Below are positions 7,127 to 36,440 of a DNA stretch of 37,462 nucleotides, piece by piece. The DNA lies in assembly GCA_049975265.1 (NCBI GenBank), contig JBNGDF010000023.1, positions 1 to 37,462 of the forward strand, written 5' to 3'. This DNA is from Fidelibacterota bacterium. Lineage in GTDB: Bacteria; Fidelibacterota; UBA2242. A program made the position numbers and the translations under genes. The first letter of the stretch is position 1, and every line of letters begins with the position of its first letter. A model generated the notes under the pieces. The model ran no database searches. It saw only the letters and a list, made by a program, of their open reading frames with translations, and had not been told where the DNA came from.

Positions 7127-7183
7127 CCTTTGGATATTGCCAAATTCTCACGTATTTTAAAAAAGTACAATTGGGAATTGCAG

Positions 7184-8233: not shown

Positions 8234-9694
8234 TTATTCGCTGTTGGTCAGAACTATTTTCAACCCCACCGGTCGGTGATCTGAAATGGTAGTTTCATAA
8301 TCATTCCATCCACCGGGAAAATAATCATCAACCCGGATGGTGATTACGACTGTAGTGATTTGAGTAAAATCATTAAACAACTCATTTGTAATAATGATGT
8401 GATCGATGTGACTTGGCCAGGTGGGATATGACCAGTTCGTACTGCTTCCGAGCGCAATATTCATATCGGCAAATCTAAAATCCTGTGTCCGATCCAAAAA
8501 GGGTAGAAACACGTTGGAGTACTGGTTATCGGTCAGCTCGTCATTAAGATCACCTAAAACAACGACCCTGTCATCGGGAAAATTGGTCTGAATATAGTGA
8601 ACGAGCAGCTCGCTGGCTTCGGCGCGCCGCTCCCGGCTCTCATCGTCGTCATAAGCTTTGTAATGATTATTGATAACAATAATGGGAATAGTCTGCCAGC
8701 GTCCCCGCAACACCAGAGGACTTCGCGGAAAAGCATTTTCTCTTCGGTAAATTTCATAAATCGTATCGACGGCAAACGACTGGATATTGTACAGATAGGC
8801 GAGATTAATGTCGCCATAGGCGGAAGAGGCTCTGAAACCCAAATATTCACTCAGTGAATCTACCAGCGTCAGGAAGTCCGAACCCGATTGAATCTCCTGC
8901 AGGGCGATCAGATCAACATGCAGAGATTTTACGGCACGTGCCAGACTCGTAATCGTGGTGCCGTTTCTCTTTGGGAAATTCTCTATATTCCAGGTCAGCA
9001 CTTCAAAACTGTTCGCACTGCCGAAATAGAGATTCTCCAGACTGAGTTCCGAGCTCAACTTCAATCGGACAACCGGACTCGGCAGTGAAACGCTACTCCC
9101 GGCAACAGCAGAAATGCGGTAGGCAACCGAATCCCGGCTGGAGCCGGCGCGATCCACAAATTCGGTATGGTTGGCGTCAATAAGCTGATAGCCTGAAAGC
9201 CAGTCACCCTCACCGGTCTTTTTATCAATTGCAAAACTCTCTTCGCCGATGCTGTTATCACGCCAGCAGATCAGGAAATCGGTTTCGTCAATCTGCCTGC
9301 CGCAGACCCCGGTCGGTTGGCAGGTAGAGTCAATATAGGCACGGATTTCTGAAAAGTCCGACGTATCGTCCACCGTGTATGCACGCAGACGGAAAGCTAC
9401 GATCCGACCGGGTATCAGCTCCACCGAATCGCTGAAACTAGCTGTTCCGGATGGAAAATTCCGGTAGTAGTCATTCCACGGCTCTTCACCGACTTTGCGG
9501 GAGAGCACGACACCCTCGATCTGTTCACTTTCAGGATTCTGCCATGTAATGTTTAATTCGTGTCCGCTCAAGCGGCTGACTGCAAGTATTGTCGGTGCCG
9601 GTGGTTTTATCTGATTATTCCCATGATGGTCACAGGACGTGGTCAGCATGATTGCGATAATATAAAACCAATAAAAGATTCGATTCATCGGCAA
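8234..9694 (-). CDS. Lipoprotein with two FN3-like domains and an endonuclease/exonuclease/phosphatase (DNase I-like) domain
   Basis: 'LTTSC' lipobox; FN3-like 'PPAP...LNITW...FRLRAY' and 'PTGV...W.DNS..E..F.I...YRISA'; complete EEP motif set TWNIENF, LQEI, NHYKA, GDLND, IDHI, SDHRPV. Start is TTG 9694 or ATG 9688. Confidence 0.92.
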   Translation of the reverse strand: MPMNRIFYWFYIIAIMLTTSCDHHGNNQIKPPAPTILAVSRLSGHELNITWQNPESEQIEGVVLSRKVGEEPWNDYYRNFPSGTASFSDSVELIPGRIVAFRLRAYTVDDTSDFSEIRAYIDSTCQPTGVCGRQIDETDFLICWRDNSIGEESFAIDKKTGEGDWLSGYQLIDANHTEFVDRAGSSRDSVAYRISAVAGSSVSLPSPVVRLKLSSELSLENLYFGSANSFEVLTWNIENFPKRNGTTITSLARAVKSLHVDLIALQEIQSGSDFLTLVDSLSEYLGFRASSAYGDINLAYLYNIQSFAVDTIYEIYRRENAFPRSPLVLRGRWQTIPIIVINNHYKAYDDDESRERRAEASELLVHYIQTNFPDDRVVVLGDLNDELTDNQYSNVFLPFLDRTQDFRFADMNIALGSSTNWSYPTWPSHIDHIIITNELFNDFTQITTVVITIRVDDYFPGGWNDYETTISDHRPVGLKIVLTNSE

Positions 9695-9715
9695 TTATGG
9701 AATGCAGGAACGGAA

Positions 9716-11350
9716 TTAGCCACCAATTTCCTTCCAGCGACCGTCGGTAGATGGGGTAATCGGTGAGTTATTCTTAATATAATCAATCAATGCCTGGCGC
9801 AGCAGAATGCCGGTGTAGTTGATTTTGCTCGGCTCCACTTCCAGCAGGCGGTCATACCCGGAGTTTCCTTCCGCCAGATAGTCGGAAACTGCCAGTGAAT
9901 AGACGCGATCATCTTCAACAGGAGTGCCGTCAATTTGGAAACGGACAACCCTGGAGCGATTGGGTTTTGAGCGGTCTATTTCTATCCGGACACCGGAAAC
10001 CAGCATGCCGCGGCTGCTTCCCGAGACACGATCCTCTACCAGCTCTTTGAGAAAACCGCCGGTCACTTTTACCACGACGATGCGGTTACCGAAAGGCATG
10101 ACAGAAAAGATATGACGCGGTGTGATTGCGCCGGCGGAGATGTCTGCTCTTACACCTCCGAAATTGGAAAAGGCGATGTCGGCGTTGGTGGCGGCGCACA
10201 TGGCATCCACAACCAGATTACCCATGGGTGATTCACCGCTGCCGGCGCGGGAAATCGGTCCGGTAGCCGAACCGATAATTTCATCGAATCCGGCTTCAGC
10301 TTCGCGAACCCATTTGTCAATCTGTTTGGCAATATTTGTATCGGGTAAAAAGTCGTCTTCAAAAAGGGTGAATATCGCCCCTTCATCGCTGACAAAATCG
10401 TAGCCCGCCAGAGTCCCGGTTTCCCGATGAATATACAAATTAACATGTCCCAGATTGCTGCCGTTGGCATAATTCTGAAAAATCAGGGTGTGATTCAGTG
10501 GGTCTTCCCAGGGTTCATAGAATCCGCGGTGCAGATGCCCGGAAAACATGACATCAATACCCGGCACCCGGTGGGCGATCTCCTGGGCGCTGGAGCCATA
10601 ATCGGCAGGCACTTCACCGTCGGCGCGCCGAGCCATCATCGCCTTGTAACCCTCTTCGGGATTGTACGCCAGCCAGGCATGGGTGACCACGATGATCATG
10701 TTGACGCCCTGTTCTCTTAATTCAGGAATATATTTCCGGATTCCTTCCACCTCAGGACGAAAATCCAAACCTTTGACATGCTCCGGAAAACTCATTTCCG
10801 GTGTCGAAGTCAGGGTCGTGCCGATTATTCCGATTTTAATACCCTGAATCTCTTTGATGATGTACGGTTTAACAAAATCAACCAGTTCTCTGCTATCTTC
10901 GTTATAGAGATTGGACGCCAGAAAGGGAAAATTCGCCATTTGTGCCAGTTCACGCAGATTTTCCCAGCCGTTATCGAAATCGTGATTGCCCACCGCCAGA
11001 GCATCATATTCCACGGTATTCATATATTCTATAATGGCTTTACCGGCGGACTTGGTTCCAATCGGTGTGCCTTGATAAATATCACCGGCGTCGAGTAGCA
11101 GAAAGCCCCAGCCGTTTTTCTCAACCTCCGTCCTTTTCTGCAAAATATAGCGTCCGGCAACGGCGCCGCCGCCCAGCATGGGTGGAAAATCGGGATTGAT
11201 AAAACTGGCTTCCCGCCGGTCAATGCCCCCATGAATATCATTGGTAAAAATGGTAACGACTTTTAAAAATTCATCATCGGGGTATTTCTGGCTGAACCCT
11301 GTAACCGGGACAAGAATTAATAAAAATGATATGATGAATATGCGTTTCAT
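9716..11350 (-). CDS. Secreted 5'-nucleotidase / UDP-sugar hydrolase (UshA-like metallophosphoesterase with C-terminal domain)
   Basis: Signal peptide; TNDIHG, DAGD, GNHDFD, SGHLH metal-binding motifs; C-terminal 'ESPMGNLVVDAM', 'NFGGVRA', 'MPFGN', 'DYLAEGNSGY'. Confidence 0.95.
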   Translation of the reverse strand: MKRIFIISFLLILVPVTGFSQKYPDDEFLKVVTIFTNDIHGGIDRREASFINPDFPPMLGGGAVAGRYILQKRTEVEKNGWGFLLLDAGDIYQGTPIGTKSAGKAIIEYMNTVEYDALAVGNHDFDNGWENLRELAQMANFPFLASNLYNEDSRELVDFVKPYIIKEIQGIKIGIIGTTLTSTPEMSFPEHVKGLDFRPEVEGIRKYIPELREQGVNMIIVVTHAWLAYNPEEGYKAMMARRADGEVPADYGSSAQEIAHRVPGIDVMFSGHLHRGFYEPWEDPLNHTLIFQNYANGSNLGHVNLYIHRETGTLAGYDFVSDEGAIFTLFEDDFLPDTNIAKQIDKWVREAEAGFDEIIGSATGPISRAGSGESPMGNLVVDAMCAATNADIAFSNFGGVRADISAGAITPRHIFSVMPFGNRIVVVKVTGGFLKELVEDRVSGSSRGMLVSGVRIEIDRSKPNRSRVVRFQIDGTPVEDDRVYSLAVSDYLAEGNSGYDRLLEVEPSKINYTGILLRQALIDYIKNNSPITPSTDGRWKEIGG

Positions 11351-11355
11351 GAGGT

Positions 11356-12696
11356 TTAAAATGAATATTTTAGGGTTAACATGCCTATCAGATAGGTTTC
11401 GCGAACCGAATCGAATTTCAGCCGCTCCTCACCGACGATGGGAAACAGATCGGGATAGTCGTATTCCGATTTCGCGAAAGCGCCGGAAACATCCAGCGCC
11501 AGGTTGCCCCAGAGATAGCCGGTTCCGGCAGTGAACCAGTTGCGATCCATACCGGCATCAATGGGATTGGGATCGTGATAAAACCCCATTCTGAAAGGGA
11601 CATCGGAGAGAAAGATGTGCTCGACAGCGACATGTATCTTGAGAACGTCTCTTAAAGGATAACTTGAAGTGTATAGATCCACCGGGAAAGAGGATGGAAG
11701 TCCCTCATTCCGAAACTCGTAATCCACCTTCGCCTTTGACCAGGGCTGATAGACGGCTTCCAGATAAAAAGCGGTTTTGATGATATTCTGCGGCTCGTAT
11801 TTCAGGCTCAGGTGCAATTCAGACGGACGCTTATAGTCGGCGCTTTTAATTTGCCGGGTGGAATCGATGGCGAAAACCGGCAGCAGACTCGTCGTATCGT
11901 GGACGAGATGGAACAAGCCGTCTTCAACAGTGGCATCATATCGAGATTTGTAGGCGGCGGCAAGGCTCGTATGGCGGTTGACATCATAGGATATCCCCAG
12001 GATTACATTTTTCAGAGCCGCGATCGTCGGTTTGGAACGGTAGGAAACCGTCTCCTCAGCAGCGAGATTGGTGCTACTTCTGATCACCTCGACTTCGTAT
12101 CGGTCCTCATATTCGGAGGGCAGTTGAATCTGAAAAGTCGCGGCAATCCGGAGCGGATTGAACAGTCGGTAGGCGCTGCCGATGGTCAGCTGCGCATCGT
12201 TGCCGGTACTGCTCAGGCGATGATAACCCACCAGCGGATCACGATTATATTGTCCATAAACCGATCCCCTTACCTCCTCTTCGTAGCGAAAATTCCGGTT
12301 GGCGAATTGCTGAAACGCCAGCCCGAGATGCAAACGATCGAGAAGACGGTAGTTCATACCGATCTGGATCCCCGGATACCAATTGGCATTTACCACATAG
12401 GTATTGTCGGCTAAAAAATCGCCGAAACTGTCCTGAACGGGAAAAGAGCGTTTCTCGTTGATGGAATTGCCGTTCATTCCGAAATAGACAGCTACTTTTC
12501 TGTCGGAAAGGGCGATCAACGCCGGATTTGTGAAAAGCGCCGCCGCCGATCCTGAATTACCCCAGGAGGAAAAACCAACCCCAATCTGCCGGGTACTGGT
12601 AACCGCCGGCAAATCTCCGATCAGGGGACTGAAGAAACTCTGACCCCGGAGCGAAGCCAATAACATTAAAAAGATCATTAATAATCGCTGTTTCAT
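11356..12696 (-). CDS. Outer-membrane beta-barrel protein, FadL/OmpP1/PorV-like
   Basis: Signal peptide; N-terminal hatch-like 'AALFTNPALIAL'; alternating aromatic strands; terminal beta-signal 'LTLKYSF'. Confidence 0.75.
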   Translation of the reverse strand: MKQRLLMIFLMLLASLRGQSFFSPLIGDLPAVTSTRQIGVGFSSWGNSGSAAALFTNPALIALSDRKVAVYFGMNGNSINEKRSFPVQDSFGDFLADNTYVVNANWYPGIQIGMNYRLLDRLHLGLAFQQFANRNFRYEEEVRGSVYGQYNRDPLVGYHRLSSTGNDAQLTIGSAYRLFNPLRIAATFQIQLPSEYEDRYEVEVIRSSTNLAAEETVSYRSKPTIAALKNVILGISYDVNRHTSLAAAYKSRYDATVEDGLFHLVHDTTSLLPVFAIDSTRQIKSADYKRPSELHLSLKYEPQNIIKTAFYLEAVYQPWSKAKVDYEFRNEGLPSSFPVDLYTSSYPLRDVLKIHVAVEHIFLSDVPFRMGFYHDPNPIDAGMDRNWFTAGTGYLWGNLALDVSGAFAKSEYDYPDLFPIVGEERLKFDSVRETYLIGMLTLKYSF

Positions 12697-15288
12697 TTAA
12701 AACCTATAATCGAGTTGAATTCTAAAATCCGACGTGGATCGTTCGTAATATACCTCCCGCACTCCGGGATCGTTTTCATCAACGCCGTCAGCACCGGTGT
12801 CTACCAAGCCGCCGACGATATTGGTCATGGGATCGTGCAGATCGAAACTGTATTTAAGGCGGATGGAGAAATCCCGTGACAGTCGCGAAAAGGCGGATAT
12901 CCAGCCGTGCAGCGCCCGGGTATCGGAATTGAAAATCCTGAAATCCGTATCCTCAAAATTCCATAAAAAACCCTTGTAGGTCATCAGAGAGCCCATAAGC
13001 TTTATCCGCTCATTCACATTATGCGTGAGGGTTAATCCGAGGGCATCACTGGGTGAACCGGCATTTCCGACGTAAGAGGCTTCACCGGTGGCGGCGTTGG
13101 TCACCAGACGCGAACGCGGGGTGAATTCGGTGAAACCCAGCGAATAGAGCACCCGAATCTGGTTATAGTTGGACAGCCGGACAATCGCCTCCAGCCGCGT
13201 CTCATTCGCCTGATAAAACACCGGTGAAAGGGTATTGGTTTTATCCCTATGTTGCCATTTCTGGCGGATTCTAAAGCGGTATTTGAACACCGGTCGGTAT
13301 TCCAGATTGAGTACCGTGCGGTAATACTGGGCGTTGTCGGCAACTCTGCGCCAGATGTCCTGCTCGGCGGTCATGACCAGCGTGCGGTGCATCTGATAGC
13401 GGGTCGTAAAATAGAACCCCCGTTCGGCTTGGGGCTGGGCGCTGGCGGAATAGAGATAACCAAGAACCGGATCTTTCAGATAGTAAACATCTTCGTAGAT
13501 GGTACCTTTGAAACGATGGTAATTGCTGTATGAGCGCTGATAGGGATTATCGAACTCAAGATCATAATCCCGGTACAGGAGCAGAAAATTAAAGTTGTCA
13601 AACTGCATATATCCCGACAGAACCAGTGCGTGAGGATCGTTTTTCCGCTTCGATAATGACAGGTCTTTATCGAGTTCGGCATATTCACCCTGCAGGGATA
13701 CATTCCGCACAACGGACATAAACTCAATGCCATAGACCCGGCGAACCGCCTGCGCCGCTGACCAGAGTGATGATGTTGCAGAAGAAATGTAGGTTGCGGC
13801 GATTTCGGAATCGGCGGAATTCCCGATCTGGGTCAGATAGCGACTGAGTCCGTCGTCGTTCAGGAGCGTTTCTCTGACCTGTAAATCCATTTCCCGGTCG
13901 TACATGCTCTGGTGCAAGGTGAATCCGAGATATGTCCCCGGCAAAAAGGAGTATTTCAGATTGCCGCCGAGCATCAGTTCCCGAACGGAGTTTACCATGG
14001 GCATCGCGATTTCATTGTATAGCCCATGCTGCATCCGTGGATACATCGTGATCAGGGTTGAAAAAGAGCTGTCCGTGTTGACAACGGCATCGCGGGAGGT
14101 GTAGGAGACAAGTCCGCTTCCAATCAGGTTGCCGATTTGCGATTCCAGGGCAACCCCGCGCAGACCATACTGGGTTGTCCGCGAGGCATTCCCACTGATC
14201 CCGTTCAGGCGTTTGCGCCAGCCGTAGCCGGTTTTGCGGGGCATGAAAAAATCGGTGGCTTCAAGAGTCACTCCCTCACCGAAAGAGGCAATATAATCAC
14301 CGACGATAATCCGGTTGAGCCGCATGAACCCGAGGTTGATGTTGTTGGCTTCGAAAAAGGCTTTAAATTCAGGATAATGCCATGATTTTGGAATATATTT
14401 CCCAACTGCATCATCAATCTTTTCATGATTATCAACAAATTTGTTTAATTTATTAAAAGTAATATCATGATAGATTGTCTTTTCGCCCATATTCCGCAAA
14501 TAAGAGGTCTCCAGGCGGTACTTCGTGCCCCAGTGCAAGCGGAGTTTGTAGTAAATATCCAGCGGATGATCCAATTTGATAAATTCGGTATAGGATTCGG
14601 CATCGTCACTGGGTGTCTGACTGAGTGAAATATTTTTTACTACCGACGAATAACTTCCACCGAAAGCGTGCTTATCAACGCCATCTTCATAACGGATAAA
14701 ATCCTCCAGGTTGGAGAAACCGTAGTAAGAAAGATTATTCGTTCCCCTCAGGTCGCTGCGATTGTTGATCTTACCCTGTCTCTGTCGTCTCACCACGGCG
14801 ACAGCATCGATAGGCGACAGCCCGGCTAAATTGAGCAGATCGAAATAGCCGATGGTGTTGACATCCACCGGATTGTTCAGCATATCAATCCAGGTATTGA
14901 CGAAATTTTCGCTGGCGCCGTCGTCGGAAATCCACTGCTCGACCTTGTAGTAATTATCCTCCACCCGCTGTTGTGACTCCGACAGAAATACGGGTGTCAA
15001 CTTTGTCATCTTTTTTAATTGTAGAAAAGTAGCATAATCGATGCTTTTAATTTTCCGCAGATCGTAGATACTCTTGAAAGGTCCGATATATTCACGGTAT
15101 TCGAGAATATCCAGCAGTTGTCTTTCCGTGATGGGCAGTGTGGCGATTTCCGTCTGTGAAGAAGTGTTCAGATCGACCTTTTCCAGCGAATCTGCCAGCA
15201 GAACGCCGGAAATAAGCAATACTGAGCAGGCGATTACCACAAAGAATCCGATGAATGTATGGATGACTTGATTGCGTCTCTGTTTCAT
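12697..15288 (-). CDS. Protein with two ComEA-like helix-hairpin-helix modules and a large probable C-terminal beta-barrel
   Basis: Signal peptide; 'KVDLNTSSQTEIATLP...ILEYREYIGPFKSIYDLRKIKSI' and 'PVDVNTIGYFDLLNLAGLSPIDAVAVV...GKINNRSDL'; about 650 aa rich in amphipathic strands ending 'FRIQLDYRF'. Confidence 0.85.
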   Translation of the reverse strand: MKQRRNQVIHTFIGFFVVIACSVLLISGVLLADSLEKVDLNTSSQTEIATLPITERQLLDILEYREYIGPFKSIYDLRKIKSIDYATFLQLKKMTKLTPVFLSESQQRVEDNYYKVEQWISDDGASENFVNTWIDMLNNPVDVNTIGYFDLLNLAGLSPIDAVAVVRRQRQGKINNRSDLRGTNNLSYYGFSNLEDFIRYEDGVDKHAFGGSYSSVVKNISLSQTPSDDAESYTEFIKLDHPLDIYYKLRLHWGTKYRLETSYLRNMGEKTIYHDITFNKLNKFVDNHEKIDDAVGKYIPKSWHYPEFKAFFEANNINLGFMRLNRIIVGDYIASFGEGVTLEATDFFMPRKTGYGWRKRLNGISGNASRTTQYGLRGVALESQIGNLIGSGLVSYTSRDAVVNTDSSFSTLITMYPRMQHGLYNEIAMPMVNSVRELMLGGNLKYSFLPGTYLGFTLHQSMYDREMDLQVRETLLNDDGLSRYLTQIGNSADSEIAATYISSATSSLWSAAQAVRRVYGIEFMSVVRNVSLQGEYAELDKDLSLSKRKNDPHALVLSGYMQFDNFNFLLLYRDYDLEFDNPYQRSYSNYHRFKGTIYEDVYYLKDPVLGYLYSASAQPQAERGFYFTTRYQMHRTLVMTAEQDIWRRVADNAQYYRTVLNLEYRPVFKYRFRIRQKWQHRDKTNTLSPVFYQANETRLEAIVRLSNYNQIRVLYSLGFTEFTPRSRLVTNAATGEASYVGNAGSPSDALGLTLTHNVNERIKLMGSLMTYKGFLWNFEDTDFRIFNSDTRALHGWISAFSRLSRDFSIRLKYSFDLHDPMTNIVGGLVDTGADGVDENDPGVREVYYERSTSDFRIQLDYRF

Positions 15289-18172: not shown

Positions 18173-18174
18173 AA

Positions 18175-20793: not shown

Positions 20794-20822
20794 TAGGTCT
20801 CCTCTGGTTCAATTAACGTTAG

Positions 20823-20851
20823 AAATTAGGATTTTGCGGTCTAAATACCAA
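20823..20851 (-). promoter_or_regulatory. Possible internal promoter for the distal seven genes of the cluster
   Basis: Minus strand TTGGTA, 17-nt spacer, TAATTT in the only large (155 bp) gap of the cluster, about 30 nt ahead of the GAGGAG-led ATG at 20793. Confidence 0.4.
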
Positions 20852-20948
20852 ATCATTTAACTTAGATATCACTTCATCTGGAAACGCTACAAATGGTTAA
20901 AACCGGCACTGTTTCTGGAGCAGTCATGCTGATGATTATTTCTGATTT

Positions 20949-23242: not shown

Positions 23243-25992
23243 TAAAACTTTACCTTCACTCCTATCATTACGTTGCGGGGTTCCTGGTATCGGGAAGGAT
23301 CGGTGGGCGGTAAATCGGTTAAGGAGTCGTACCAGGAACGGGGAATCGGATCACCGGGCTCATAAGCCCGACCGGTGACCGGATTGATCCGGCGGGCGAT
23401 TTTCGCATCCAGCAGATTTTCAATCTGTACAGACAGGTCGAAACCGAGTTTATTCACAGAAAAACCTTTCGTTACTTTCAGGTCCCAGCGTTGCCAGTAG
23501 GGAGACAGCGCCGAATATTCCGCATCGGCATATTTTTCCAGCTCGAGGTCAATGATCGGCGTGTAGCGTTTTCCGGAAGAGACCTGCCAATGAATATATA
23601 TCCCGAAATCACGGGGAAGTGGCAGAAAGCCCAGTTTTGCCCGATTGTCTTTTGGGATATAAAAATTGAAATCCGCCGACATACGCAGAGGAACATCCCA
23701 ACTCATAAAGGTTTCCGCCAGCGATTTTTCCTTGTTGACTGACACCTTATCGAGGGCTTCATTGGGTGATGAACTTTTCCCGGAAGTAATTGAGTAAGTC
23801 CCGTTCAATCTGACAGACAGCAGCTCCGAGAAACGGCGCTGCAGGTAGACCTCCAGACCACGGGAACGGGCATAATCCATATTGAAATACATAAACGGTC
23901 TTTTTTGTCCCGACTCTCCCTGAATCGTCAGTCTTTCCGATGTGGCATAATCGAACAGGTCTTTGTAAAAAGCCGTGATATTGATGATCTGATCTTCGCT
24001 GAATTTATGTTTGATGCCGATTTCATAGGCAACCGTCGTAGTGGGATTTAAATCCGGATTGCCCAGCAACGGACTGGCACCGAGTTTGGTTTTATTCAAT
24101 CCGGCGTAAATGTACTCGTAGTTTGGTCGCTGCGAGAAATGTCCGTAGGAAAAGAACAGGACATCATTATCGGTCAGCGGATGCGAAATTCCCAGTCGCG
24201 GACTCAGGTGGGCTTTGCCTCTTTTCCCGGTGATCCCGAAAGTACCGTCCCTGAAATCTTCCCGAAAATGCTGCGAAAGGTGCGGCGCCAGTTCCTGGTT
24301 ATCAATTAACTCTGTACAGATTTCATCCAGCAGCATGTAGTCAAGCCGGAGACCGATATTGACGATCATCCCGGAATAGACAATTTTATCCTGAATATAC
24401 GCAGCGCCGGCATTCGGCGTGACGGTGTAAATATCCCAGGAGCCGCCAAAACTGTTCTGCACACCGGTCAGCCACGGATCGTCGATATTAATAACCTGCA
24501 GCTCGGTGAATTCGGTTTCGAAACCGGTTTTAAGACGATGATTATTGGACACCTGACTGGTCAGTTCCGTTTTGATCGTCCAGGTGTCGGAATAGTGGTC
24601 ATGCCAGTTCGAGGCGTCGCCGGTATCGTAAAATCCATCCCGTATCCAGACCGATACATCGCCATCGGGAAAATCACTGAAATAGCGAATCGGCTTGATA
24701 TCATTGCGGATATCATATTCATCGAAATATTTTCCCTGTACAGCCGAGTGAACGTTGATGAACACCCGACCGATGTCCATTTCCAAAAATGTCCGCTGAT
24801 TGAAAGAGTGCGTCAATTGCAGATTGTACTGAATACCGTCCCAGGTCATGGTATTGTAATGATCCAGCCAGTACATGTATTCATAAGGAAAATACACCTT
24901 CGTGTTGGCAATTGACTGAAAATAGCCTTGATTAATTTGCAGGGAGCGTTTATAGGTTCCGGAGAGTTTGGTGTTATGATACTTCCAGGTCAGTTTCAGC
25001 AATCCCGACCAGTTGTTTTCCTCCCGCTGGGCAAACGGCTGGTAAGCCTTTTCTGCCGGAATAAGTTCCGATGCCGATGGTAAATAGGTATCCGATATAA
25101 ACATGTACGCATTGGAAAAAAAGGTCAGCGAGCCGGGTAAATTTAAGCCCAGCGCCGGTAATAATCTGGCTGAAAAAGGCTCGGGACCACCCAGCGATAT
25201 TTCCACCACATCGGTATTAAAGTTTTGCACTGATTCGATGAAAATATGATCGGATTTCAGGGCGATACTGCCGTGATATTCCTCACCACCCTCTTTTGTT
25301 TTCACCTCAATGATGCCGGACATCGCCTGTCCGTATTCGGCGTTGAATCCACCGGTGATGACCTCCAGCTCTTCGATGGCATCGGTACTCAGGAAGATGC
25401 CGTAATTCTTACCCGACAGTGGGTCTTTCGTGGAAACACCGTCAATAATATAGAGATTCTCGTCGGCTCGTCCCCCACGGATATGGATCTCATTATCGAC
25501 TTTGACGACCCCCACCTGTTGCTCCAGGATATCATCCATGCTCTCAATTATTTTAGTGTCGATATCATCACTGCTGACCCGCTGCAATGAACTGGTTAAA
25601 TCCGGCTCCAGCAGCGGCTTTTTCCCGATGACAACCACCTCCTGCCCGAACGACAGTATCGTCGGTTCCATCGGAATCTCTAACTCGACCACCGCTGTTT
25701 CATCCACACTGATTCCGGTGTAGAGCTGAACCTTGTAACCAATGGTGCTGACTTCGATATCGTAATCACCGGGACTCAGTCCCGTGATGATAAAATTGCC
25801 GTTCAGGTCTGTAGCGGAACCTTTATATGTGCCTTTGACGATCACATTGGCACCGATGATGGGTGTTTCATTTTCCTTATCATAGACCCTGCCTTTGATC
25901 GTGCCGCCCGCAGCATGGATACTGAATAACAGCAAAAAAATCAATGTTATATTGAGATTGAATTTTTGCTTATTACGAATAGGGATACTCAA
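23242..25992 (-). CDS. TonB-dependent receptor with N-terminal carboxypeptidase-regulatory-like domain
   Basis: 'GTIKGRVYD...PIIGANV...ATDLNGNF'; plug 'IHIRGGRADENLYIIDG' and 'GGFNAEYGQAMSGII'; 'SPRLGISHP', 'GNPDLNP', 'ENLLD'; terminal 'PRNVMIGVKVKF'. Confidence 0.95.
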   Translation of the reverse strand: MSIPIRNKQKFNLNITLIFLLLFSIHAAGGTIKGRVYDKENETPIIGANVIVKGTYKGSATDLNGNFIITGLSPGDYDIEVSTIGYKVQLYTGISVDETAVVELEIPMEPTILSFGQEVVVIGKKPLLEPDLTSSLQRVSSDDIDTKIIESMDDILEQQVGVVKVDNEIHIRGGRADENLYIIDGVSTKDPLSGKNYGIFLSTDAIEELEVITGGFNAEYGQAMSGIIEVKTKEGGEEYHGSIALKSDHIFIESVQNFNTDVVEISLGGPEPFSARLLPALGLNLPGSLTFFSNAYMFISDTYLPSASELIPAEKAYQPFAQREENNWSGLLKLTWKYHNTKLSGTYKRSLQINQGYFQSIANTKVYFPYEYMYWLDHYNTMTWDGIQYNLQLTHSFNQRTFLEMDIGRVFINVHSAVQGKYFDEYDIRNDIKPIRYFSDFPDGDVSVWIRDGFYDTGDASNWHDHYSDTWTIKTELTSQVSNNHRLKTGFETEFTELQVINIDDPWLTGVQNSFGGSWDIYTVTPNAGAAYIQDKIVYSGMIVNIGLRLDYMLLDEICTELIDNQELAPHLSQHFREDFRDGTFGITGKRGKAHLSPRLGISHPLTDNDVLFFSYGHFSQRPNYEYIYAGLNKTKLGASPLLGNPDLNPTTTVAYEIGIKHKFSEDQIINITAFYKDLFDYATSERLTIQGESGQKRPFMYFNMDYARSRGLEVYLQRRFSELLSVRLNGTYSITSGKSSSPNEALDKVSVNKEKSLAETFMSWDVPLRMSADFNFYIPKDNRAKLGFLPLPRDFGIYIHWQVSSGKRYTPIIDLELEKYADAEYSALSPYWQRWDLKVTKGFSVNKLGFDLSVQIENLLDAKIARRINPVTGRAYEPGDPIPRSWYDSLTDLPPTDPSRYQEPRNVMIGVKVKF

Positions 25993-25993
25993 T

Positions 25994-27637
25994 TTAATGA
26001 CCTAAAAACTCCCGGATCACTTCCTTCATATTGCCGTCGCCGTTGGTATTGTGCAGTGTAAAAGACAAAAAGATTAACTTCACTTCTCCTTCCGTGGGAT
26101 ATTTTACACCGATAACCGGTTCACCCGGCCACTCGTTTCGGCTGGATGCGGGCAGCTGATACAACGTATCGGCGTCGGCGCCCACAATCAGTCCGTCAGG
26201 ATTGGAGATGATTTTTCCGCTGGTAACTTTCAAATCCACATAGCTGGAGTCGCGACTGTAAATAATCTGCCCGGGACCGATGCGATAATCACCTGCCTTG
26301 AACCGATACCGGTCCGCAACTATTTCAAATCCATCGGAGGATAAAAAGGCAAATAACGAATCGTTGTTATCAATTGCATTGATGGAGCTTATCAATATAT
26401 GATGATTTCGTTCCGGCTGCAGAATATACGCCAGAATTTCCGGTGATATATTCGGCAGATGCGATTGCCCGTCCGCGTAATAAATAATATAGTTGAAAAA
26501 TGATAAGGTTTCCTCAATGTCAATTTTCGAATAGGGAATCCGGTCTTCGATATGCCAGACGGAGTAATTTTCTGTTCCCAGAATTTCATCCAGAGCTGCC
26601 GGATAAAGTTCATCGCCATCGGTTTTCAAGGCGTAGTCATCAATAAAAAGGGTACCGTTGCGCTTCGGTTCTTCAACGATCCAGGTGCCCTTCTCCCGGG
26701 GAAAACGAATAATTTCGCTGAACTGTCCCGCGATGTCCACCACCGTCAGATAGAATACCCATTCCCCTTCCGGAATGTCGCGCAGTGTAAGCACTCTCTG
26801 GGAACCATCAAGAATGCCGTGAATTTCACAATTTTGAAAATCAGCGAGAGTTGCCGGAGATTCGGACATTTTTCGGTTCAATGCATAATGAAAATTCACA
26901 AGGGTTTCATTCCCGTCGGGATCATAGCCGATCCAGTTGAAAGTCCGGGTAGTAAACGTCCTGGAAGTAAGTGTATCCGGAGGATTGCTGCCATAGACGA
27001 AACTGACTTCCGGCGGGGAATTCTTAATAGGGAAAAGACCAAACGCAGGTGTCGGATCAACGGCGCCGGTCGTATCGGTTGGCGGCAAATTATAAAATTC
27101 ATCACCCCGCAGTGTCGTTAATACGGCGCCAAAGGTGGTCTGAATTCCCGGCGTATCTCCGCGGGACAGAGCAATATCGGTCTCATCATAGATTCTATAT
27201 TGACTGCCAATATCGGCAAAATACTCGTTATCTATGTCTGATTTGGTTGCTTCCTGATAATTCCATTCGGCACAGTTATCGACTGCTTTGATCTTGATCC
27301 AGAAATCATCCGTCAATTGGCGAATCGGGATGTGGAAGGTGTCCGATTCTGCAGTTGTCCAGATACAGGAATCCGGGACAGTTTCGGCAAAGTGACTCCA
27401 CTGATAATAGTAACCCATCACTTCACCATCGGGATCACTGCCCCACCAGTGTAAAATCTGAGTACTGAAGGTAGTATCAAATCCGGCTGCGGTGGGCTGA
27501 ATGAACAGTCTTGTGTCCGGTCTTTGATTGGGATGAGGATTGGATGTCAATCCCTTTTCACAAGAGAAATAGCCAATGGCGCAGACAACCGTGATAGTGA
27601 ATACCGCTGATAACGATTTGCTCAAAGACTCCACCAA
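25994..27637 (-). CDS. Lipoprotein with two related Ig-like modules, function unknown
   Basis: 'GYFSC' lipobox; repeated module 'NQRPDT...LHWWGSDPDGEVMGYYY...IKAVDN' and 'NSPPEV...FNWIGYDPDGNETLVNFHY...VVDIAG'; 1 bp from the receptor gene. Start is TTG 27637, GTG 27634 or TTG 27625. Confidence 0.78.
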   Translation of the reverse strand: MVESLSKSLSAVFTITVVCAIGYFSCEKGLTSNPHPNQRPDTRLFIQPTAAGFDTTFSTQILHWWGSDPDGEVMGYYYQWSHFAETVPDSCIWTTAESDTFHIPIRQLTDDFWIKIKAVDNCAEWNYQEATKSDIDNEYFADIGSQYRIYDETDIALSRGDTPGIQTTFGAVLTTLRGDEFYNLPPTDTTGAVDPTPAFGLFPIKNSPPEVSFVYGSNPPDTLTSRTFTTRTFNWIGYDPDGNETLVNFHYALNRKMSESPATLADFQNCEIHGILDGSQRVLTLRDIPEGEWVFYLTVVDIAGQFSEIIRFPREKGTWIVEEPKRNGTLFIDDYALKTDGDELYPAALDEILGTENYSVWHIEDRIPYSKIDIEETLSFFNYIIYYADGQSHLPNISPEILAYILQPERNHHILISSINAIDNNDSLFAFLSSDGFEIVADRYRFKAGDYRIGPGQIIYSRDSSYVDLKVTSGKIISNPDGLIVGADADTLYQLPASSRNEWPGEPVIGVKYPTEGEVKLIFLSFTLHNTNGDGNMKEVIREFLGH

Positions 27638-27640
27638 GGG

Positions 27641-27672
27641 AAAAGTGCGCCCCGACGATGTCGGGACGCACT
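27641..27672 (-). terminator. Intra-cluster stem-loop with short U-tract (terminator, attenuator or mRNA stabiliser)
   Basis: Minus strand AGTGCGTCCCGAC-ATC-GTCGGGGCGCACT-TTT: 13-bp stem with one G-U pair, 12 nt after the stop of 27685-30258. Confidence 0.75.
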
Positions 27673-27684
27673 AAGTGTTGTTAA

Positions 27685-30258
27685 CTACTTCAAAAGTATC
27701 ATCTTTTTGGATTGTACATAATCACCGGCAACGATCTGGTAGATATACACACCTGCCGGCACAAGCCGGTTGTATTTATCCAATCCGTTCCAGGTAAGCG
27801 TATAATTTCCGGAAGGCTGATTCTTTTGCACTAACGTAATCACCTCTTGACCAATAATATTGTAGACTTTCAGTGTGACGTTACCACTTTTTTCGATTCC
27901 GTAATTGATGGTCGTCGTCGGGTTGAATGGATTCGGATAGTTCTGATCGAGGTAATAGCTGACCGGTACATTGACCTTGTCTTTGTCAATTCCAACAACC
28001 GTGCCGATATCATCATTATCCCTGACGATGATCTCATAATAGCTATAGGAATAGGTTAAATTACCGGTAATAAATTCAATCTGATCGCCGACAACCGGTT
28101 CATAATCATAATTACAGCTTGATTTGTATCCGTTGATTTGAACCACATAGCCATGATCGTCGGTTACTGTCCAGTCACCATTGTCATTTTTCGCGGATAT
28201 AACGGTTACTGAGGGGATTTTAACTAAAACACCTTCGTACTTTTCCGAGATTGTCGAATCACAGGGAATATCTGCTGAGCTGACTTCTACGGCTATGGCA
28301 TCGGTCGTACCGCTTAATTTAGTAATCGAAGCAACATTCCCGATTTCCGTCAATCCGTAATATTCCTGGACGGTGCCGACAACCTCCACGTTATCGCCAA
28401 TTGTCAAGTTCGGATATTCATCGGAGTAAATCATAATTCCGTTCCAAGCTGCGGCAGGATGGCTGGAATTTGAAAAATCCTGAACATGAAAAGACCGGGT
28501 ATACGTGGATGAATCAGATGTAACTGTCCCTGTAAATTTGACAAGTTTACCTTTCAGCGGTGAATCTCCACTGGCATCGTCAGTGAACTGAATATCGTAA
28601 ATCGTGGTCTCTGTCGGTCCTAAAACCATGAATGAATATAAAGAATCCGGAGCCGTCGCCGGGTCAAGACTTTCATTGTTATCATTGTCAGTCGCATGAA
28701 TGAAAAACCGGACCGTATCACCGTTATCCAGCGGGTCAATTTTAGCTTCATAGGCATAACCAGAGGTTTTTATCAGGATCTGTGGGGTAAAAGTACCACT
28801 GTTAACCGAATAATAGAGAGCCGCTTCACTAATCGTACCATCGTCGAGAATAGATGTTGTTACAGTTATGGTATCTTCGGGTTGAGGATTGACCGGATAA
28901 TATCGTGTGCCACTGATGATTGGCGGACCCACCATAACAACGATATCACGATCATACCTCGGTAGTAGCTCATATACGCCCCAGTGATGATACAAAACAC
29001 CGGTAATGGATTCAAACATTGTTCCGACCGCCGGTGCGCCGAGCGATACACTGTCCGAGTAGCCGAAATTAACCCATAAACCACGCCCGCTGGCATCAAC
29101 GACCAGTGGATCGCCATAGTTATTGACACTGTCAACCATGACATTCACAACTTGCATCAGGACATTTTCATACTTTTCCGGTTCATACCCGGGGATGCCA
29201 TCATAGTAGAGGCTGTCATTAAATATACTGGTATTCACAACAACAGGTTCCGGCAAATCGCAGTACATTGCGTGCACCACAATCTCTTCGGTAGCGAAAA
29301 ATTCCGTCGTATTACCGGGATAAGTATTACTCCAGTATTCGCTGACATAACCGGTAACCGAAATAGAGTCTCCTTCGAAAACGGTCGCCACTTCCTCACT
29401 GAAATAATCGTAAATCATAATACCACTCCAGGCACCGCCTCCCGATTGCTGCAGGTAGTATTTTTTTCCATCACCTCCATACATAAGCCCGGACTGAACC
29501 GTCACGATCCCGGTTATCGTCAGTGTATCGCCGTAGAACAACGAACTGTCATTGCCGGCAATCACATCACACTCCCGAACCTGCTGGATGGATTGGATCA
29601 TGGTTGACCCGTTAATCGCTCCAAAATCGTAAGCAGCGCGGGGTTGGATTTCATTGTGACCATAGGATAAAAAGGCGACGCCTACGATCCAGTCAATGAC
29701 ATCACCAACTTTTTGCTTATAGAAGTAATTATCATCGGCTCTGGTACCAATTTTACATTCACCTGAGCCGTCGTCCACCAGCCAGGCATAGGAACCGTCT
29801 GTCTCATCGGTAACGGTTACATTTTTTACTTTGACGAGAACACTTTCGTACTGTTCGGCACTATCAATTCCGGCGGTTGTCCCTTCGACCGGTTCAATCC
29901 ATTTGCAAGAATCCAATTTAACCAGTTCCGTTACGTCAACTATTTCAGTCAGACCGTAATACTCATCTACTTTACCGGTGACTTGGACACTGTCGCCTTC
30001 CATAACTTCATAGGTACTACTCGAACCTATATAGACCTGAATCCCGTTCCAGGGACCGGGCGCATCCTGCATGAAAAAGTAGCCGCTGCTGAAAGTATAA
30101 CGCCCCACCGTCACAATCCCGGAGATAGTAACCACCTGATCTTTTAAGGGAGAATCCCCGGTGGGATCGGTAGTATACTGGATGTCGTAAATGGGCGTGA
30201 TCGTCTGTGCCAGCAACACACTTCCCAGCAATACAATGAATAGTAACGATTTTCGCAT
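27685..30258 (-). CDS. Secreted protein with three tandem-OB-fold repeats, one Ig-like domain and a FlgD/T9SS type A-like C-terminal domain
   Basis: Signal peptide; repeats beginning 'TPIYDIQ...GDSPLKDQVVTISGIVT', 'TMIQSIQ...DSSLFYGDTLTITGIVT', 'TTIYDIQ...GDSPLKGKLVKFTGTVT', each with 'W[NS]GI.IY', 'GD.V.V.G.V.EY', 'E.YE.VL' (YhcR/ExeM-like OB pattern); 'QNYPNPFNPTT...KKMILLK'; GGAGG SD. Confidence 0.87.
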   Translation of the reverse strand: MRKSLLFIVLLGSVLLAQTITPIYDIQYTTDPTGDSPLKDQVVTISGIVTVGRYTFSSGYFFMQDAPGPWNGIQVYIGSSSTYEVMEGDSVQVTGKVDEYYGLTEIVDVTELVKLDSCKWIEPVEGTTAGIDSAEQYESVLVKVKNVTVTDETDGSYAWLVDDGSGECKIGTRADDNYFYKQKVGDVIDWIVGVAFLSYGHNEIQPRAAYDFGAINGSTMIQSIQQVRECDVIAGNDSSLFYGDTLTITGIVTVQSGLMYGGDGKKYYLQQSGGGAWSGIMIYDYFSEEVATVFEGDSISVTGYVSEYWSNTYPGNTTEFFATEEIVVHAMYCDLPEPVVVNTSIFNDSLYYDGIPGYEPEKYENVLMQVVNVMVDSVNNYGDPLVVDASGRGLWVNFGYSDSVSLGAPAVGTMFESITGVLYHHWGVYELLPRYDRDIVVMVGPPIISGTRYYPVNPQPEDTITVTTSILDDGTISEAALYYSVNSGTFTPQILIKTSGYAYEAKIDPLDNGDTVRFFIHATDNDNNESLDPATAPDSLYSFMVLGPTETTIYDIQFTDDASGDSPLKGKLVKFTGTVTSDSSTYTRSFHVQDFSNSSHPAAAWNGIMIYSDEYPNLTIGDNVEVVGTVQEYYGLTEIGNVASITKLSGTTDAIAVEVSSADIPCDSTISEKYEGVLVKIPSVTVISAKNDNGDWTVTDDHGYVVQINGYKSSCNYDYEPVVGDQIEFITGNLTYSYSYYEIIVRDNDDIGTVVGIDKDKVNVPVSYYLDQNYPNPFNPTTTINYGIEKSGNVTLKVYNIIGQEVITLVQKNQPSGNYTLTWNGLDKYNRLVPAGVYIYQIVAGDYVQSKKMILLK

Positions 30259-30269
30259 GTTCTTTCCTC

Positions 30270-32417
30270 CTATTTTATGATTGCGAACTTACCTATTGAT
30301 ATTTTATCATTATCCAAATCTTCAACTGCAAACATATACAGTCCGGCAGCAACCGCCTGGTTATGACGTGTAATCAGGTCCCAGGCATGTTCTCCGCCGG
30401 AAAAAACCGGTTCGGTTCCGAAAGTCACTTCCGCCAGCAATTCTATATCCGATCCGTTATAAGTCGCAGCATCATGCTGAATCACATCGATCAGCTCCCC
30501 GGAAAGTGTATAAATCCGGATTTCCGCCCGGGGAGGCAGATTGGTGAACCAGATCATCCGCTCCCTTTCGCCAAATCCATCCCAGTCGGCGGTTGCCCGA
30601 TAGGGATTCGGATAAACACCGATTTTACGTTCCAGCCTTGGATTGGTCGTAGTTCCCGGAATGGCATATACCTTAGAAGCGGCACTTTCCGAACTTTCGA
30701 TATTATTGGATGCATCACCAAAATCAAAGGCGACGACCGAGTACCAGTTCCGTGCCGGCCAGCCATTTTTAAGATCGTAATCGGTAAATTTATACTGAAA
30801 TTCCATAGAATCACCGTTAATTATAAACCACCGTGAAGATGGATTTCCTTCGGAATCATAGATCCGTGCCTGATCGAGTCCGGTATTATAATTGGTAAAA
30901 CCGATAGGCTGCACCTCAAATTTGTCAATAATATCGTATTGTGCCAACAGGGTGTTCTCTTTCCCGACCCCGGTCTTGCGACCCCCGTAAATCCGATAAC
31001 CTTCGAAATCGATGATTTCGGTAACCGGGTCGTATGCGTCGGGATTATTCGGGTCTTCGGCAGTGTCATCCCAGTATACGGTTATCTGCTGATCGCCGGG
31101 CACCACATGCATGTTCGGCGAGGGCGGCGGACCCGGCAGCTTATACCCCAGATCGTAGGCGCGCTGAGCCCAGGCAGCATTTTCATAGAGCTCCTGGCGA
31201 CGGTCTTCCGTATCATCCTGTGAGTCGGTGGACCACAAACCGCATACAACAGCAAAGGTAATCTCGATCTCCTGACCCGCCTCCCAGACCGTTTCATTGA
31301 ATTCATTTTGCAAATTTCCAAAGGGTCCGGCAGAAATCAGCACCATCCAGCTGGCGGGCTCCGTAATCAGTTCATAACTCGAACCGGGATACAAATGCAT
31401 CCTCTCATACATCGCTTCGTCACCAATGGGTGTGGAGTGGTGATCAACTCCCTGAAGCTCGTTCCCATTCCAGGGCCATTGATCGTAATAGACATCAAAA
31501 TTTGATTCTGCGGCGGAGGGCGATCCCAGATATTTTACACCAAAATAGCTCTGCGCCCAGCCCTGATCACCGTCGAGATCCGTCTGATATGCCAGCGAGA
31601 GTGAATCGATAAAATTGTTGCGGTTATCGTACCAGTCCCAGCCGCCCCCGGGCTCGCAATTACTGGTAAAGTTCATATTCCCCACCGAGGCATCAAACCA
31701 GAGCCCCACATAGGGATCAATGATCTGGTCTTCTGATATATTTTTCAAGCGATAATTCAGGATCACAAAGGAATTGGCATAAGGATAATTCCAACAATAG
31801 GTTTCGAGATGAACTTTAATTCCCAGCGGCTCATGGGGAATCTGGATTTCCGTGCCCGGAATCACCTGGGCAGTATCGGTAAACTCCGCAATCATATCCT
31901 GGTGCGAAACCGCCGCACTGTCATAATGGCTCGCCAACTGTTGAATAACGGGATCGGTGGTCCGTTTGTTGAATGTCGATCGAATCCGGACAATGTCGCT
32001 TGAGTCGGCGGTACTGGAAAATTCTCTGCCTGCCGGTCGGGAACCGTATTCATCAGACACGAATCCGTCGGTGATTGCCGATGAAACCAGAATTTTGTTA
32101 TTCTTTATTCCTCCCACCCAAAGACCGGCGTAGGAAAAATGCTCCACCTGTTCCTGTTTGTATTCCGAATACAATTTATATCGGCAGGATGGCTGGACAC
32201 AGGTCTCATATCCCTCACCCAAAATCCCGTAATTTGTCACCGTCATACCGATCTGACCGGCAAAGGTATAGTGAGTAAAATCGCGGATATTCGGCTTCTG
32301 CAGAATCTGAGACATGGTTTGAACGGAAACGATCAGCCCCACGATCCCCGATAAGATCATGCTGAACAAATAAACAGAGTTGTTTAACCGGCGGTTTTTG
32401 ACCGTTTTCTTAGCCAT
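30270..32417 (-). CDS. Secreted protein with FN3-like domain and 'VYPNPY...WDL...KFAIIK' C-terminal sorting-type domain; function unknown
   Basis: Signal peptide; 'GMTVTNYGILG', 'AGLWVGG', 'PLGIKVHLETYCW', 'PPPSP...VPGDQQITVYWD...DFEGYRIY', 'IGVYPNPY...IWFTNLP...IRIYTLSGELI...WDLIT...AAGLYMFAV'. First gene of the cluster. Confidence 0.8.
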   Translation of the reverse strand: MAKKTVKNRRLNNSVYLFSMILSGIVGLIVSVQTMSQILQKPNIRDFTHYTFAGQIGMTVTNYGILGEGYETCVQPSCRYKLYSEYKQEQVEHFSYAGLWVGGIKNNKILVSSAITDGFVSDEYGSRPAGREFSSTADSSDIVRIRSTFNKRTTDPVIQQLASHYDSAAVSHQDMIAEFTDTAQVIPGTEIQIPHEPLGIKVHLETYCWNYPYANSFVILNYRLKNISEDQIIDPYVGLWFDASVGNMNFTSNCEPGGGWDWYDNRNNFIDSLSLAYQTDLDGDQGWAQSYFGVKYLGSPSAAESNFDVYYDQWPWNGNELQGVDHHSTPIGDEAMYERMHLYPGSSYELITEPASWMVLISAGPFGNLQNEFNETVWEAGQEIEITFAVVCGLWSTDSQDDTEDRRQELYENAAWAQRAYDLGYKLPGPPPSPNMHVVPGDQQITVYWDDTAEDPNNPDAYDPVTEIIDFEGYRIYGGRKTGVGKENTLLAQYDIIDKFEVQPIGFTNYNTGLDQARIYDSEGNPSSRWFIINGDSMEFQYKFTDYDLKNGWPARNWYSVVAFDFGDASNNIESSESAASKVYAIPGTTTNPRLERKIGVYPNPYRATADWDGFGERERMIWFTNLPPRAEIRIYTLSGELIDVIQHDAATYNGSDIELLAEVTFGTEPVFSGGEHAWDLITRHNQAVAAGLYMFAVEDLDNDKISIGKFAIIK

Positions 32418-34336: not shown

Positions 34337-34350
34337 AAAGGAGGACAATT

Positions 34351-36438: not shown

Positions 36439-36440
36439 TC

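Follow-up and report, generated by a model that had tools for sequence, protein, structure and literature searches.

A two-module outer-membrane locus of Marinisomatota with a probable role in nucleic-acid nutrition

In SusC/SusD loci, a TonB transporter is co-transcribed with hydrolases and with binding proteins exposed at the surface. For DNA, the ddbABCDEF loci of gut Bacteroidales have been described as utilisation loci, in which DdbD carries the domain DUF5689 (PMC12478041). Residue K164 of ComEA is required for DNA binding (PMC9747964), and the YhcR-like OB region is necessary for the activity of the nuclease ExeM (PMC6085458). Extracellular-DNA catabolic nucleases are poorly characterised (PMC8630151); which organisms feed on DNA free in sediment and seawater, and by what route it passes the outer membrane where no pilus is used, is the wider question. 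The DNA considered here is a stretch of 37,462 nucleotides (contig JBNGDF010000023.1; "the window"), which forms contig C23 of a Marinisomatota genome of 2.86 Mb and 95% completeness (label G000). It carries a locus of 13 genes, g1 to g13, that is real and conserved and is probably a system of nucleic-acid nutrition. The general kind of locus is already described, as ddbABCDEF (PMC12478041, in the parts available), a point that the earlier note on this DNA, made from the sequence alone, had left undecided. The reading preferred here, and considered probable, is that two joined outer-membrane modules scavenge environmental DNA or RNA for nutrients (nucleosides, phosphate). Its basis is gene content, kept gene order, intact catalytic motifs and folds taken from models; binding, cleavage and import are proposals.

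The locus consists of 13 open reading frames (ORFs), all on the minus strand, from g1 (starting at 32417) to g13 (ending at 8234). Successive intergenic gaps are 11, 47, 1, -1, -4, 155, 2, -4, -4, 0, 5 and 21 bp, so that the co-orientation and spacing given in the earlier note, including the gaps of 47 and 155 bp, stand. All 13 proteins begin with a hydrophobic stretch preceded by 1-5 basic residues (by a hydropathy heuristic, not SignalP), which agrees with the export signals ascribed to every one of them, and the same heuristic finds a Cys at the lipobox position in g3, g6 and g13. The single 13-gene unit of the note gives way to two six-gene modules, A (g1-g6) and B (g7-g12), plus a variable gene, g13, of the endonuclease/exonuclease/phosphatase (EEP) family. 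The features, in window coordinates, are these:

30270..32417, minus strand: g1, 715 residues; signal peptidase I (SPI) signal, beta-supersandwich-like N-terminal domain, fn3 and a variant C-terminal domain (CTD) of the type IX secretion system (T9SS); partner in a generic TonB/PorV trio; module A.
27685..30258, minus strand: g2, 857 residues; three tandem-OB (DUF5689/YhcR-like) repeats, an Ig-like domain and a type A T9SS CTD.
27644..27672, minus strand: stem-loop, a 13-bp stem and then a short T run, inside the 47-bp gap between g2 and g3.
25994..27637, minus strand: g3, lipoprotein of 547 residues; no Pfam or curated-family match.
23242..25992, minus strand: g4, TonB-dependent transporter (TBDT) of 916 residues with a carboxypeptidase-regulatory-like N-terminal domain.
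22241..23242, minus strand: g5, PorV/PorQ-family barrel of 333 residues; predicted surface anchor for a CTD protein.
20949..22244, minus strand: g6, NHL beta-propeller lipoprotein of 431 residues; closes module A.
20794..20948, no strand: the 155-bp gap at the boundary of modules A and B.
18175..20793, minus strand: g7, 872 residues; PKD domain, lamin-tail domain (LTD), Ig-like domain, OB region and type A CTD; opens module B.
16193..18172, minus strand: g8, 659 residues; LTD, Ig-like domain, tandem OB (weak DUF5689) and variant CTD.
15285..16196, minus strand: g9, PorV-like barrel of 303 residues, under the family cut-off.
12697..15288, minus strand: g10, 863 residues; two helix-hairpin-helix (HhH) domains of ComEA fold (about 36-98 and 138-202) and a predicted 24-stranded barrel (209-862).
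11356..12696, minus strand: g11, FadL/TodX-family barrel of 446 residues.
9716..11350, minus strand: g12, UshA/CD73-like 5'-nucleotidase homologue of 544 residues; SPI signal, no CTD; predicted periplasmic.
8234..9694, minus strand: g13, EEP-family lipoprotein of 486 residues; motifs intact; variable member.

Locus scans of relatives show that gene order is kept far beyond chance. For module B, the best 80 of 250 g10 matches in GTDB were read, presence being counted only at loci with contig room (thresholds were set in the analysis): g9 was found in 71/71, g8 in 63/63, a g7- or g2-type protein in 46/46, g11 in 77/77 and g12 in 67/69. The metagenome scan covered the best 80 of 319 g10 matches, some of them redundant, and 50 that scored low against the Marinisomatota profile were classed as distant. 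At these distant loci g10 is followed by g12 in 36/36 and by g11 in 43/45 (one miss is a start-call artefact), and is preceded by g9 in 25/39 and by an OB/CTD protein in 16/28, and most of the loci without them belong to one low-GC group. From these neighbour counts, g10-g11-g12 is an invariant core that has no TBDT, and the TonB receptor can no longer be taken as the only importer, since a conserved nucleotidase-linked core does without it. A profile search with g10 returned 146 representatives at E <=1e-30, and source-labelled members include Krumholzibacteria, Gemmatimonadota, WOR-3, Elusimicrobiota and Cloacimonadota. In the low-GC group itself (L186, L194, L196-L198, L203, L206, L209-L211, L233, L234) there is g10-g11-g12 only, without g9 or upstream OB proteins.

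Around g10 in 13 relatives, the g7-g12 order is kept to the contig ends, and g1-g6 adjoin only in G001, G005 and G014. Module A, read in 19 genomes picked by a g1 match, has g1-g6 complete and ordered in 16/19; two copies are cut by a contig edge and one is permuted. A survey of 151 Marinisomatota genomes, with module A called by a single g1 protein query at E 1e-60, found g10 in 73, g1 in 87 and neither in 43. An obligate unit of 13 genes was rejected, the modules occurring alone in 56 of the 151; of the synteny that had been expected across genomes, the order within each module is widely kept, and the two modules adjoin in some genomes only. Module A precedes module B in family f1 and again in G042 (f10), where the 13 genes are all arranged as in the window; it follows module B in G073 (f17) and G118 (f21). 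The modules are thus neighbours in four families, in one order or the other. In G014, G001 and G005, g8 and g11 are 81-89% alike but the adjacent TBDTs only 40-43% alike, and this contrast indicates that different module A subtypes fill one site before a near-identical module B. A UBA2242 locus (L048) has a g10 60% identical to that of the window, and near homologues carry the label Marinimicrobia, from which a Marinisomatota host is deduced. All 12 members of family f12 (genomes of about 1 Mb) were without g10, g1 and ComEC in these searches. The FastTree tree served only to choose queries, and no claim of gene transfer rests on it.

Module A is built on a scaffold that the genome uses repeatedly. 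Trios of a TBDT, a g1-like CTD protein and a PorV protein, which holds CTD proteins, number ten including module A (the nine further ones on contigs C3, C5, C8, C15, C18, C25 and C47), and g1 has nine paralogues within the genome. Neighbours of the other nine trios (58 ORFs, TBDT and PorV aside) include amylases with CBM20, GH5, GH88, GH43, peptidases, LTD-LamG proteins and phosphodiester-type proteins. The absence of SusD given in the earlier note was borne out: PF07980 has no match in the 95%-complete genome, with a positive Bacteroides thetaiotaomicron control, and none of the 13 locus proteins matches SusD families. The TonB-dependent receptor and the three FadL/PorV-like barrels that had been recognised are g4 and g5, g9 and g11. 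Against the SusC/RagA family TIGR04056, g4 scores 77.6 bits (cut-off 368) and in its N-terminal part only, which places it outside that family; g5 scores 170.5 bits against NF033709 (PorV/PorQ; cut-off 90) and belongs to it. In all module A copies g3 lies directly upstream of the TBDT. For g1, whose PDB sequence search gave no match, the model (pLDDT 70.8) has as best structural matches GH94/GH116 chains and fn3 proteins at TM-query <=0.26. The four proteins g1, g2, g7 and g8 have the marks of T9SS substrates, namely a signal peptide and a CTD in a genome where a T9SS is recognised by SprA and PorU, both above their family cut-offs; the CTDs of g2 and g7 exceed TIGR04183, and those of g1 and g8 are weak variant tails.

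What sets module A apart is g2. Its tandem-OB units span residues 19-212, 220-439 and 550-750, about 195 residues each, and the profile of this repeat finds only four ORFs in the genome: g2, g8 and two large proteins encoded at other sites. The other nine trios contain no match. The protein g2 matches the non-catalytic N-terminal part of ExeM/NucH and, in a PDB sequence search, the N-terminus of the solved EEP proteins 9sf8/9sf9; no catalytic domain was found in g2 itself. Against PF18942 (DUF5689), g2 has no match at E 0.01 and g8 reaches E 0.006 only, and two g2 orthologues exceed the cut-off. Labelled g2 homologues include Cloacimonetes, KSB1 and Calditrichaeota. By these domains, g2 is likely a surface nucleic-acid-binding protein, and module A reads as a nucleic-acid version of the generic TonB/PorV scaffold. 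Stand-alone copies of module A, at which module B was not found, are flanked by an EEP-LTD-CTD protein in L143 and L154, and by an LTD-CTD protein only in L146.

A generic trio, with paralogues beside amylase, GH5, GH88/GH43 and peptidase genes, a g1 that recalls the sandwich domains of GH94/GH116, and a module A that stands without B in 35/151 genomes would all suit a cassette for glycan or other-polymer uptake that is unrelated to module B and adjoins it incidentally. Such a cassette is most improbable given that the modules are found side by side in four families and in both orders, that three module A subtypes occupy one site before near-identical copies of module B, that g2 is OB-only, and that EEP-LTD proteins flank stand-alone module A. 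Two further proteins of the genome bear on these domains. On contig C2 (L133:3121-10081), adenosine deaminase lies directly before an 1885-residue LTD/OB-repeat CTD protein, beside a ROK regulator; this is a possible second nucleic-acid locus. On contig C33 (L134:3809-11413), a secreted protein of 2534 residues joins DUF5689, CBM20 and LamG, so that DUF5689 can sit in one chain with sugar-binding domains.

Module B opens with two more OB proteins. OB repeats in three secreted proteins and lamin-tail-like domains in two, as claimed before, are all present: g8 matches PF01336 (OB) at E 5e-8; g7, with no direct Pfam OB match, aligns to the OB part of g8 (E 1e-33) and to the N-terminal part of ExeM (E 6e-22); and Pfam finds an LTD in both. 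A PDB sequence search with g8 gave weak, unrelated matches only. The barrel g9 scores 40.6 bits (E 2e-10) against NF033709, under the cut-off of 90, and is homologous to g5 (hhalign 94%); g8 is likely held by it. The most unusual member is g10, whose model (from an alignment of 84 sequences, pLDDT 80.3, strands counted from the DSSP list) has two HhH domains followed by a barrel of 24 strands. With the whole 863-residue model as query, the top Foldseek matches were the ushers FimD/PapC, MtrB and LptD, at TM-query <=0.32 and about 9% identity, and a VIA structure search returned generic barrels only, plus ComEA for residues 34-98. No close solved relative of the barrel was found with this model. 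VIA alignments of g10 with TonB receptors start at model residue 115, facing the receptor plug region, and there is a weak hint in the model that the second HhH domain (HhH2) lies in or under the barrel lumen. Among 153 conserved barrel columns, 28 are R/K and 25 D/E, that is, mixed polar. A predicted complex between g9 and the barrel of g10 scored 0.01, which is no answer and counts for neither side.

The HhH domains have the ComEA fold. Residues 34-98 superpose on Geobacillus stearothermophilus ComEA (8dss) with Z 11.2 and a root-mean-square deviation of 1.2 over 64 aligned residues at 31% identity, and g10 matches PF12836 (HHH_3) at 61.4 bits in two stretches, under the cut-offs of TIGR01259 and TIGR00426. 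The ComEA-like HhH modules of the earlier note are thus real as a fold, but they form the N-terminus of a large barrel and do not carry the DNA-contact signature: the G-h-G hairpins and the contact lysine (Bacillus subtilis K164) were not found in g10. The genome's stand-alone ComEA keeps KIGK and GIGEK. Because the contact residues are missing in both HhH domains, ratcheting of double-stranded DNA by g10 is unsupported, and the dsDNA binding of ComEA HhH cannot be carried over to it. Look-alikes of the g10 barrel occur in Bacteroidota and Cloacimonadota structure clusters, as leads without alignments. In G014 (L037, contig C23) g10 is split over two ORFs, and matches with in-frame stops lie on G021:C54 and G003:C49; these broken copies reflect either decay or assembly error.

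The triad closes with g12, in which the predicted 5'-nucleotidase is recognised by a metallophosphoesterase domain with intact UshA-type metal ligands and a 5_nucleotid_C domain, as in UshA/CD73-like enzymes. Against the UshA equivalog NF007109 it scores 200.9 bits (cut-off 600); by its motifs it would work like UshA, without being filed as UshA. A full nucleotidase occupies this position in the window and in 28/63 Marinisomatota rows; the other 35/63 have instead a degenerate phosphoesterase in fusion with an EEP domain (L150:5221-7209, L109:11326-13260 and 33 further GTDB loci), with metal ligands lost, the EEP domain intact-looking and often a second EEP gene next. This replacement indicates that the nucleic-acid theme outlasts gene remodelling. 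The proposition that all g12 genes are active nucleotidases was rejected on the same 35 degenerate rows. Among distant loci, 33/33 full-length g12 proteins have the two-domain nucleotidase form, three being clearly degenerate and several bearing single changes. The variable gene g13 is present in 33/53 module B loci with contig room and keeps all EEP motifs, which upholds its family; the profile cannot separate nuclease from phosphatase, and g13 may be either. Alone, g13 found no match in a PDB sequence search. Exported proteins without a Pfam match follow g12 or g13 at some loci, one of about 226 residues (10 loci; L057:9327-10007) and one of 324 residues (11 loci; L093:16542-17516).

Module B might instead take up small phosphorylated molecules (nucleotides, NAD, nucleotide sugars, few-base oligonucleotides) and not polymeric DNA, g10 being a plugged solute pore with purely structural HhH domains. 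The non-canonical HhH residues, the mixed polar and not strongly basic conserved barrel residues, the distant clade that retains g10-g11-g12 without g9 or upstream OB proteins, and an EEP protein that may be a phosphatase are what such a pore would lead one to expect. It is nonetheless judged quite unlikely, as OB-repeat proteins stand upstream of g10 in 63/63 Marinisomatota loci with room, endonuclease I has been recruited in three loci (of 160 module B loci read), and a barrel of 24 strands would exceed the needs of small solutes.

The absence of pilus, ComEC and DprA genes holds for the window, but genes for ComEC, DprA and a stand-alone ComEA lie elsewhere in the genome, as does a cluster for PilM, PilO, PilQ and a prepilin peptidase, and the argument for nutrition built on their absence therefore fails. 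It is unlikely, all the same, that the locus provides a pilus-independent outer-membrane step of transformation, alone or combined with feeding, with intact DNA handed to ComEA/ComEC. In Riemerella anatipestifer the pair RA0C_RS04915/04920 (TBDT-like and DUF5689) is essential for transformation (PMC8459023, in part), and such a hand-over of intact DNA has been proposed for it. ComEC, DprA and ComEA are all in the present genome, and ComEC occurs in 70/73 g10-positive genomes, although the comparison with 61/78 g10-negative ones is uninformative. The single-contig genome G050 has ComEC, g10 and module A, and a secretin was not found in it, which leaves room for a dual role in feeding and transformation. 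On the other side, ComEC, DprA and PilQ occur in 0/160 module B loci (62 of these at least 15 kb) and 0/20 module A loci, the genome has its own pilus cluster and ComEA, and the contact residues of the g10 HhH domains are missing. The invariant neighbour, moreover, is a nucleotidase homologue; UshA-type nucleotidases serve salvage, and a nucleotidase is not known to take part in transformation. A substitution of g10 for the pilus secretin was rejected, secretin being present in 28/32 g10-positive and 26/32 g10-negative genomes (hand-picked).

Nutrition is favoured by the tie to the nucleotidase, the patchy distribution of g10 (73/151, against 131/151 for the near-core ComEC) and the separate competence set. 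The nucleic-acid theme and nutritional role put forward in the earlier note are supported by several observations: a 5'-nucleotidase homologue after the HhH barrel at nearly all GTDB and all distant loci, nucleases beside both modules, and competence genes beside neither. At other sites in the genome, a gene of the uridine-kinase family adjoins that of a CNT transporter, DeoC is encoded next to a phosphomutase, and there is a secreted endonuclease I. UBA2242 genomes were present in DNA-amended Guaymas cultures, where they were tied mainly to polysaccharides (PMC8630151, in part).

A pathway for scavenging may be envisaged as follows. The CTD proteins g1, g2, g7 and g8 would be exported by the genome's type IX system, the variant-tailed g1 and g8 staying on their own PorV-like barrels, g5 and g9. 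At the cell surface, nucleic acid would be retained by the OB repeats of g2, g7 and g8, and there it could be cut by the EEP lipoprotein g13 or, in relatives, by endonuclease I or EEP-LTD proteins. Fragments would enter in two ways, through the TonB transporter g4 and through g10 with its barrel of 24 strands, where gating of the pore is a likelier task for the HhH domains than ratcheting of dsDNA; g11 may be a nucleoside channel or a docking barrel. Periplasmic g12 would then free phosphate and nucleosides, and the latter could be used via the CNT transporter and the DeoC pathway. On this scheme g10 would represent a new class of outer-membrane nucleic-acid channel, 24-stranded, independent of pilus and SusC/D, HhH-gated, supplied by OB proteins that the T9SS tethers and linked to a periplasmic nucleotidase, a proposal that is tentative and has somewhat less than an even chance.

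Binding without uptake has also to be weighed. The proteins of the locus might serve to bind or remove extracellular DNA on the cell's outside (in the biofilm matrix, in adhesion or in defence), with barrels as scaffolds and little import: FadL-family barrels may be structural docks, BamG being an example (PMC12611786, in part), biofilms are affected by ExeM-type nucleases (PMC6085458, in part), and none of g2, g7 and g8 is catalytic. With a bona fide TBDT and a predicted periplasmic nucleotidase in the locus, import followed by processing is implied, and a surface role alone is very unlikely.

Several observations weigh against scavenging by two joined modules. The modules occur together in 52/151 genomes, g10 (B) alone in 21 and g1 (A) alone in 35, and a long distance separates them in G050 and G058, both single-contig genomes. 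The first HhH domain of g10 lacks the GIG hairpin (LP-ITERQ, KSIDYA) and is acidic, with a median net charge of -6 over 84 sequences; HhH2 is highly conserved, with an invariant Asp161 at the helix start, the site of the key lysine in ComEA, and a GLSYYG motif. In module A, g1 is generic with a weak likeness to carbohydrate-enzyme sandwich domains, and a nuclease Pfam domain was found in 0 of the best 120 of 509 g2 homologues. LTDs, offered earlier as a nucleic-acid marker, also occur in non-OB TonB modules of the genome and lose that value. The best solved matches of the EEP profile include mannosyl-6-phosphatase and sphingomyelinases ahead of DNase I, NupC and DeoC were found in 0/160 module B loci, and the frequency of ComEC among g10-positive genomes keeps transformation in contention. 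DNA is, besides, a poor sole source of C, N or P for B. thetaiotaomicron despite ddb (PMC12478041, in part).

Regulation and surroundings of the locus can be described briefly. The stem-loop at 27644..27672, between g2 and g3, is the strongest among 22 terminator-like matches and may set transcript stoichiometry. A promoter scan gave 25 sites against 26.3 expected, and a common motif was not found in the sequences upstream of g7, compared by eye. Downstream of g13, two convergent genes without a clear family at 5714-8221 (470 residues, GAF/PAS-like by eye; 363 residues, lipoprotein-like) are beside g13 in four loci, and a fusion protein of CsgG-like, PEGA and small barrel parts is encoded at 3967-5451. 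A divergent operon at 32831-36929 contains an acyl-CoA ligase-like gene, an EF-G paralogue and a HIT-family nucleotide hydrolase.

If g10 is such a channel, many uncultured lineages of the FCB group, including about half of Marinisomatota, would have a dedicated route for eating DNA or RNA. The locus suggests how SusD-less TonB uptake is built in the phylum, and ddb-like loci with swapping subtypes would extend beyond Bacteroidota. The g10-g11-g12 triad offers a single-copy marker, found in 73/151 Marinisomatota genomes and in distant lineages, and g10 may be a new channel class.

The comparison with described systems brings out what is shared and what is not. With SusC/SusD polysaccharide-utilisation loci (PULs) the locus shares the grouping of a TonB transporter with hydrolases and with proteins that bind at the surface (PMC12478041, in part), and it differs in that no SusD was found in the genome and g4 falls far under the SusC cut-off. 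Closest are the ddb loci, which, in the available description (PMC12478041), are likewise PUL-like and in which a TonB transporter that is not of SusC/D type goes together with a binding protein built on DUF5689 (tandem OB) and with nucleases for export, with subtypes that swap at one genomic site in Bacteroides as the module A subtypes do here. By its description, module A would work like ddbABCDEF and is a candidate member of that kind. The OB proteins here are T9SS substrates with dedicated PorV-like barrels, whereas in ddb there is a lipoprotein lid; g2 lies two genes away from g4 and is a CTD protein rather than a lipoprotein; and nothing in that description corresponds to the second route, made up of HhH barrel, FadL-like barrel and 5'-nucleotidase. 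In Riemerella anatipestifer, a TBDT-like barrel with a carboxypeptidase-regulatory-like domain is paired with the DUF5689 protein RA0C_RS04920, there is an HhH protein, RA0C_RS02645, and ComEC and DprA are encoded elsewhere; that HhH protein is described as periplasmic, with three HhH domains, and not as fused to a barrel, and a nucleotidase is not described in the parts of PMC8459023 used. ComEA shares its (HhH)2 fold with g10 (PF12836, 8dss), whereas g10 fuses it to a barrel and does not keep the hairpin glycines and key lysine. The LTD, YhcR-like OB and EEP domains of ExeM/NucH and YhcR (PMC6085458, in part) are all in the locus but split between chains, g2, g7 and g8 having no catalytic domain and g13 no LTD or OB; as single-chain nucleases of that type, g2 scores 95.9 of 300 bits and g7 77.4 of 1300. 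The ushers FimD/PapC, MtrB and LptD are similar in barrel size, a generic likeness only, as g10 has no usher domains. In the literature searched, with most subscription journals outside its coverage, neither the HhH-barrel triad nor the SusD-less trio was found described. Taken against these systems, the locus likely represents a nucleic-acid uptake route partly unlike those known.

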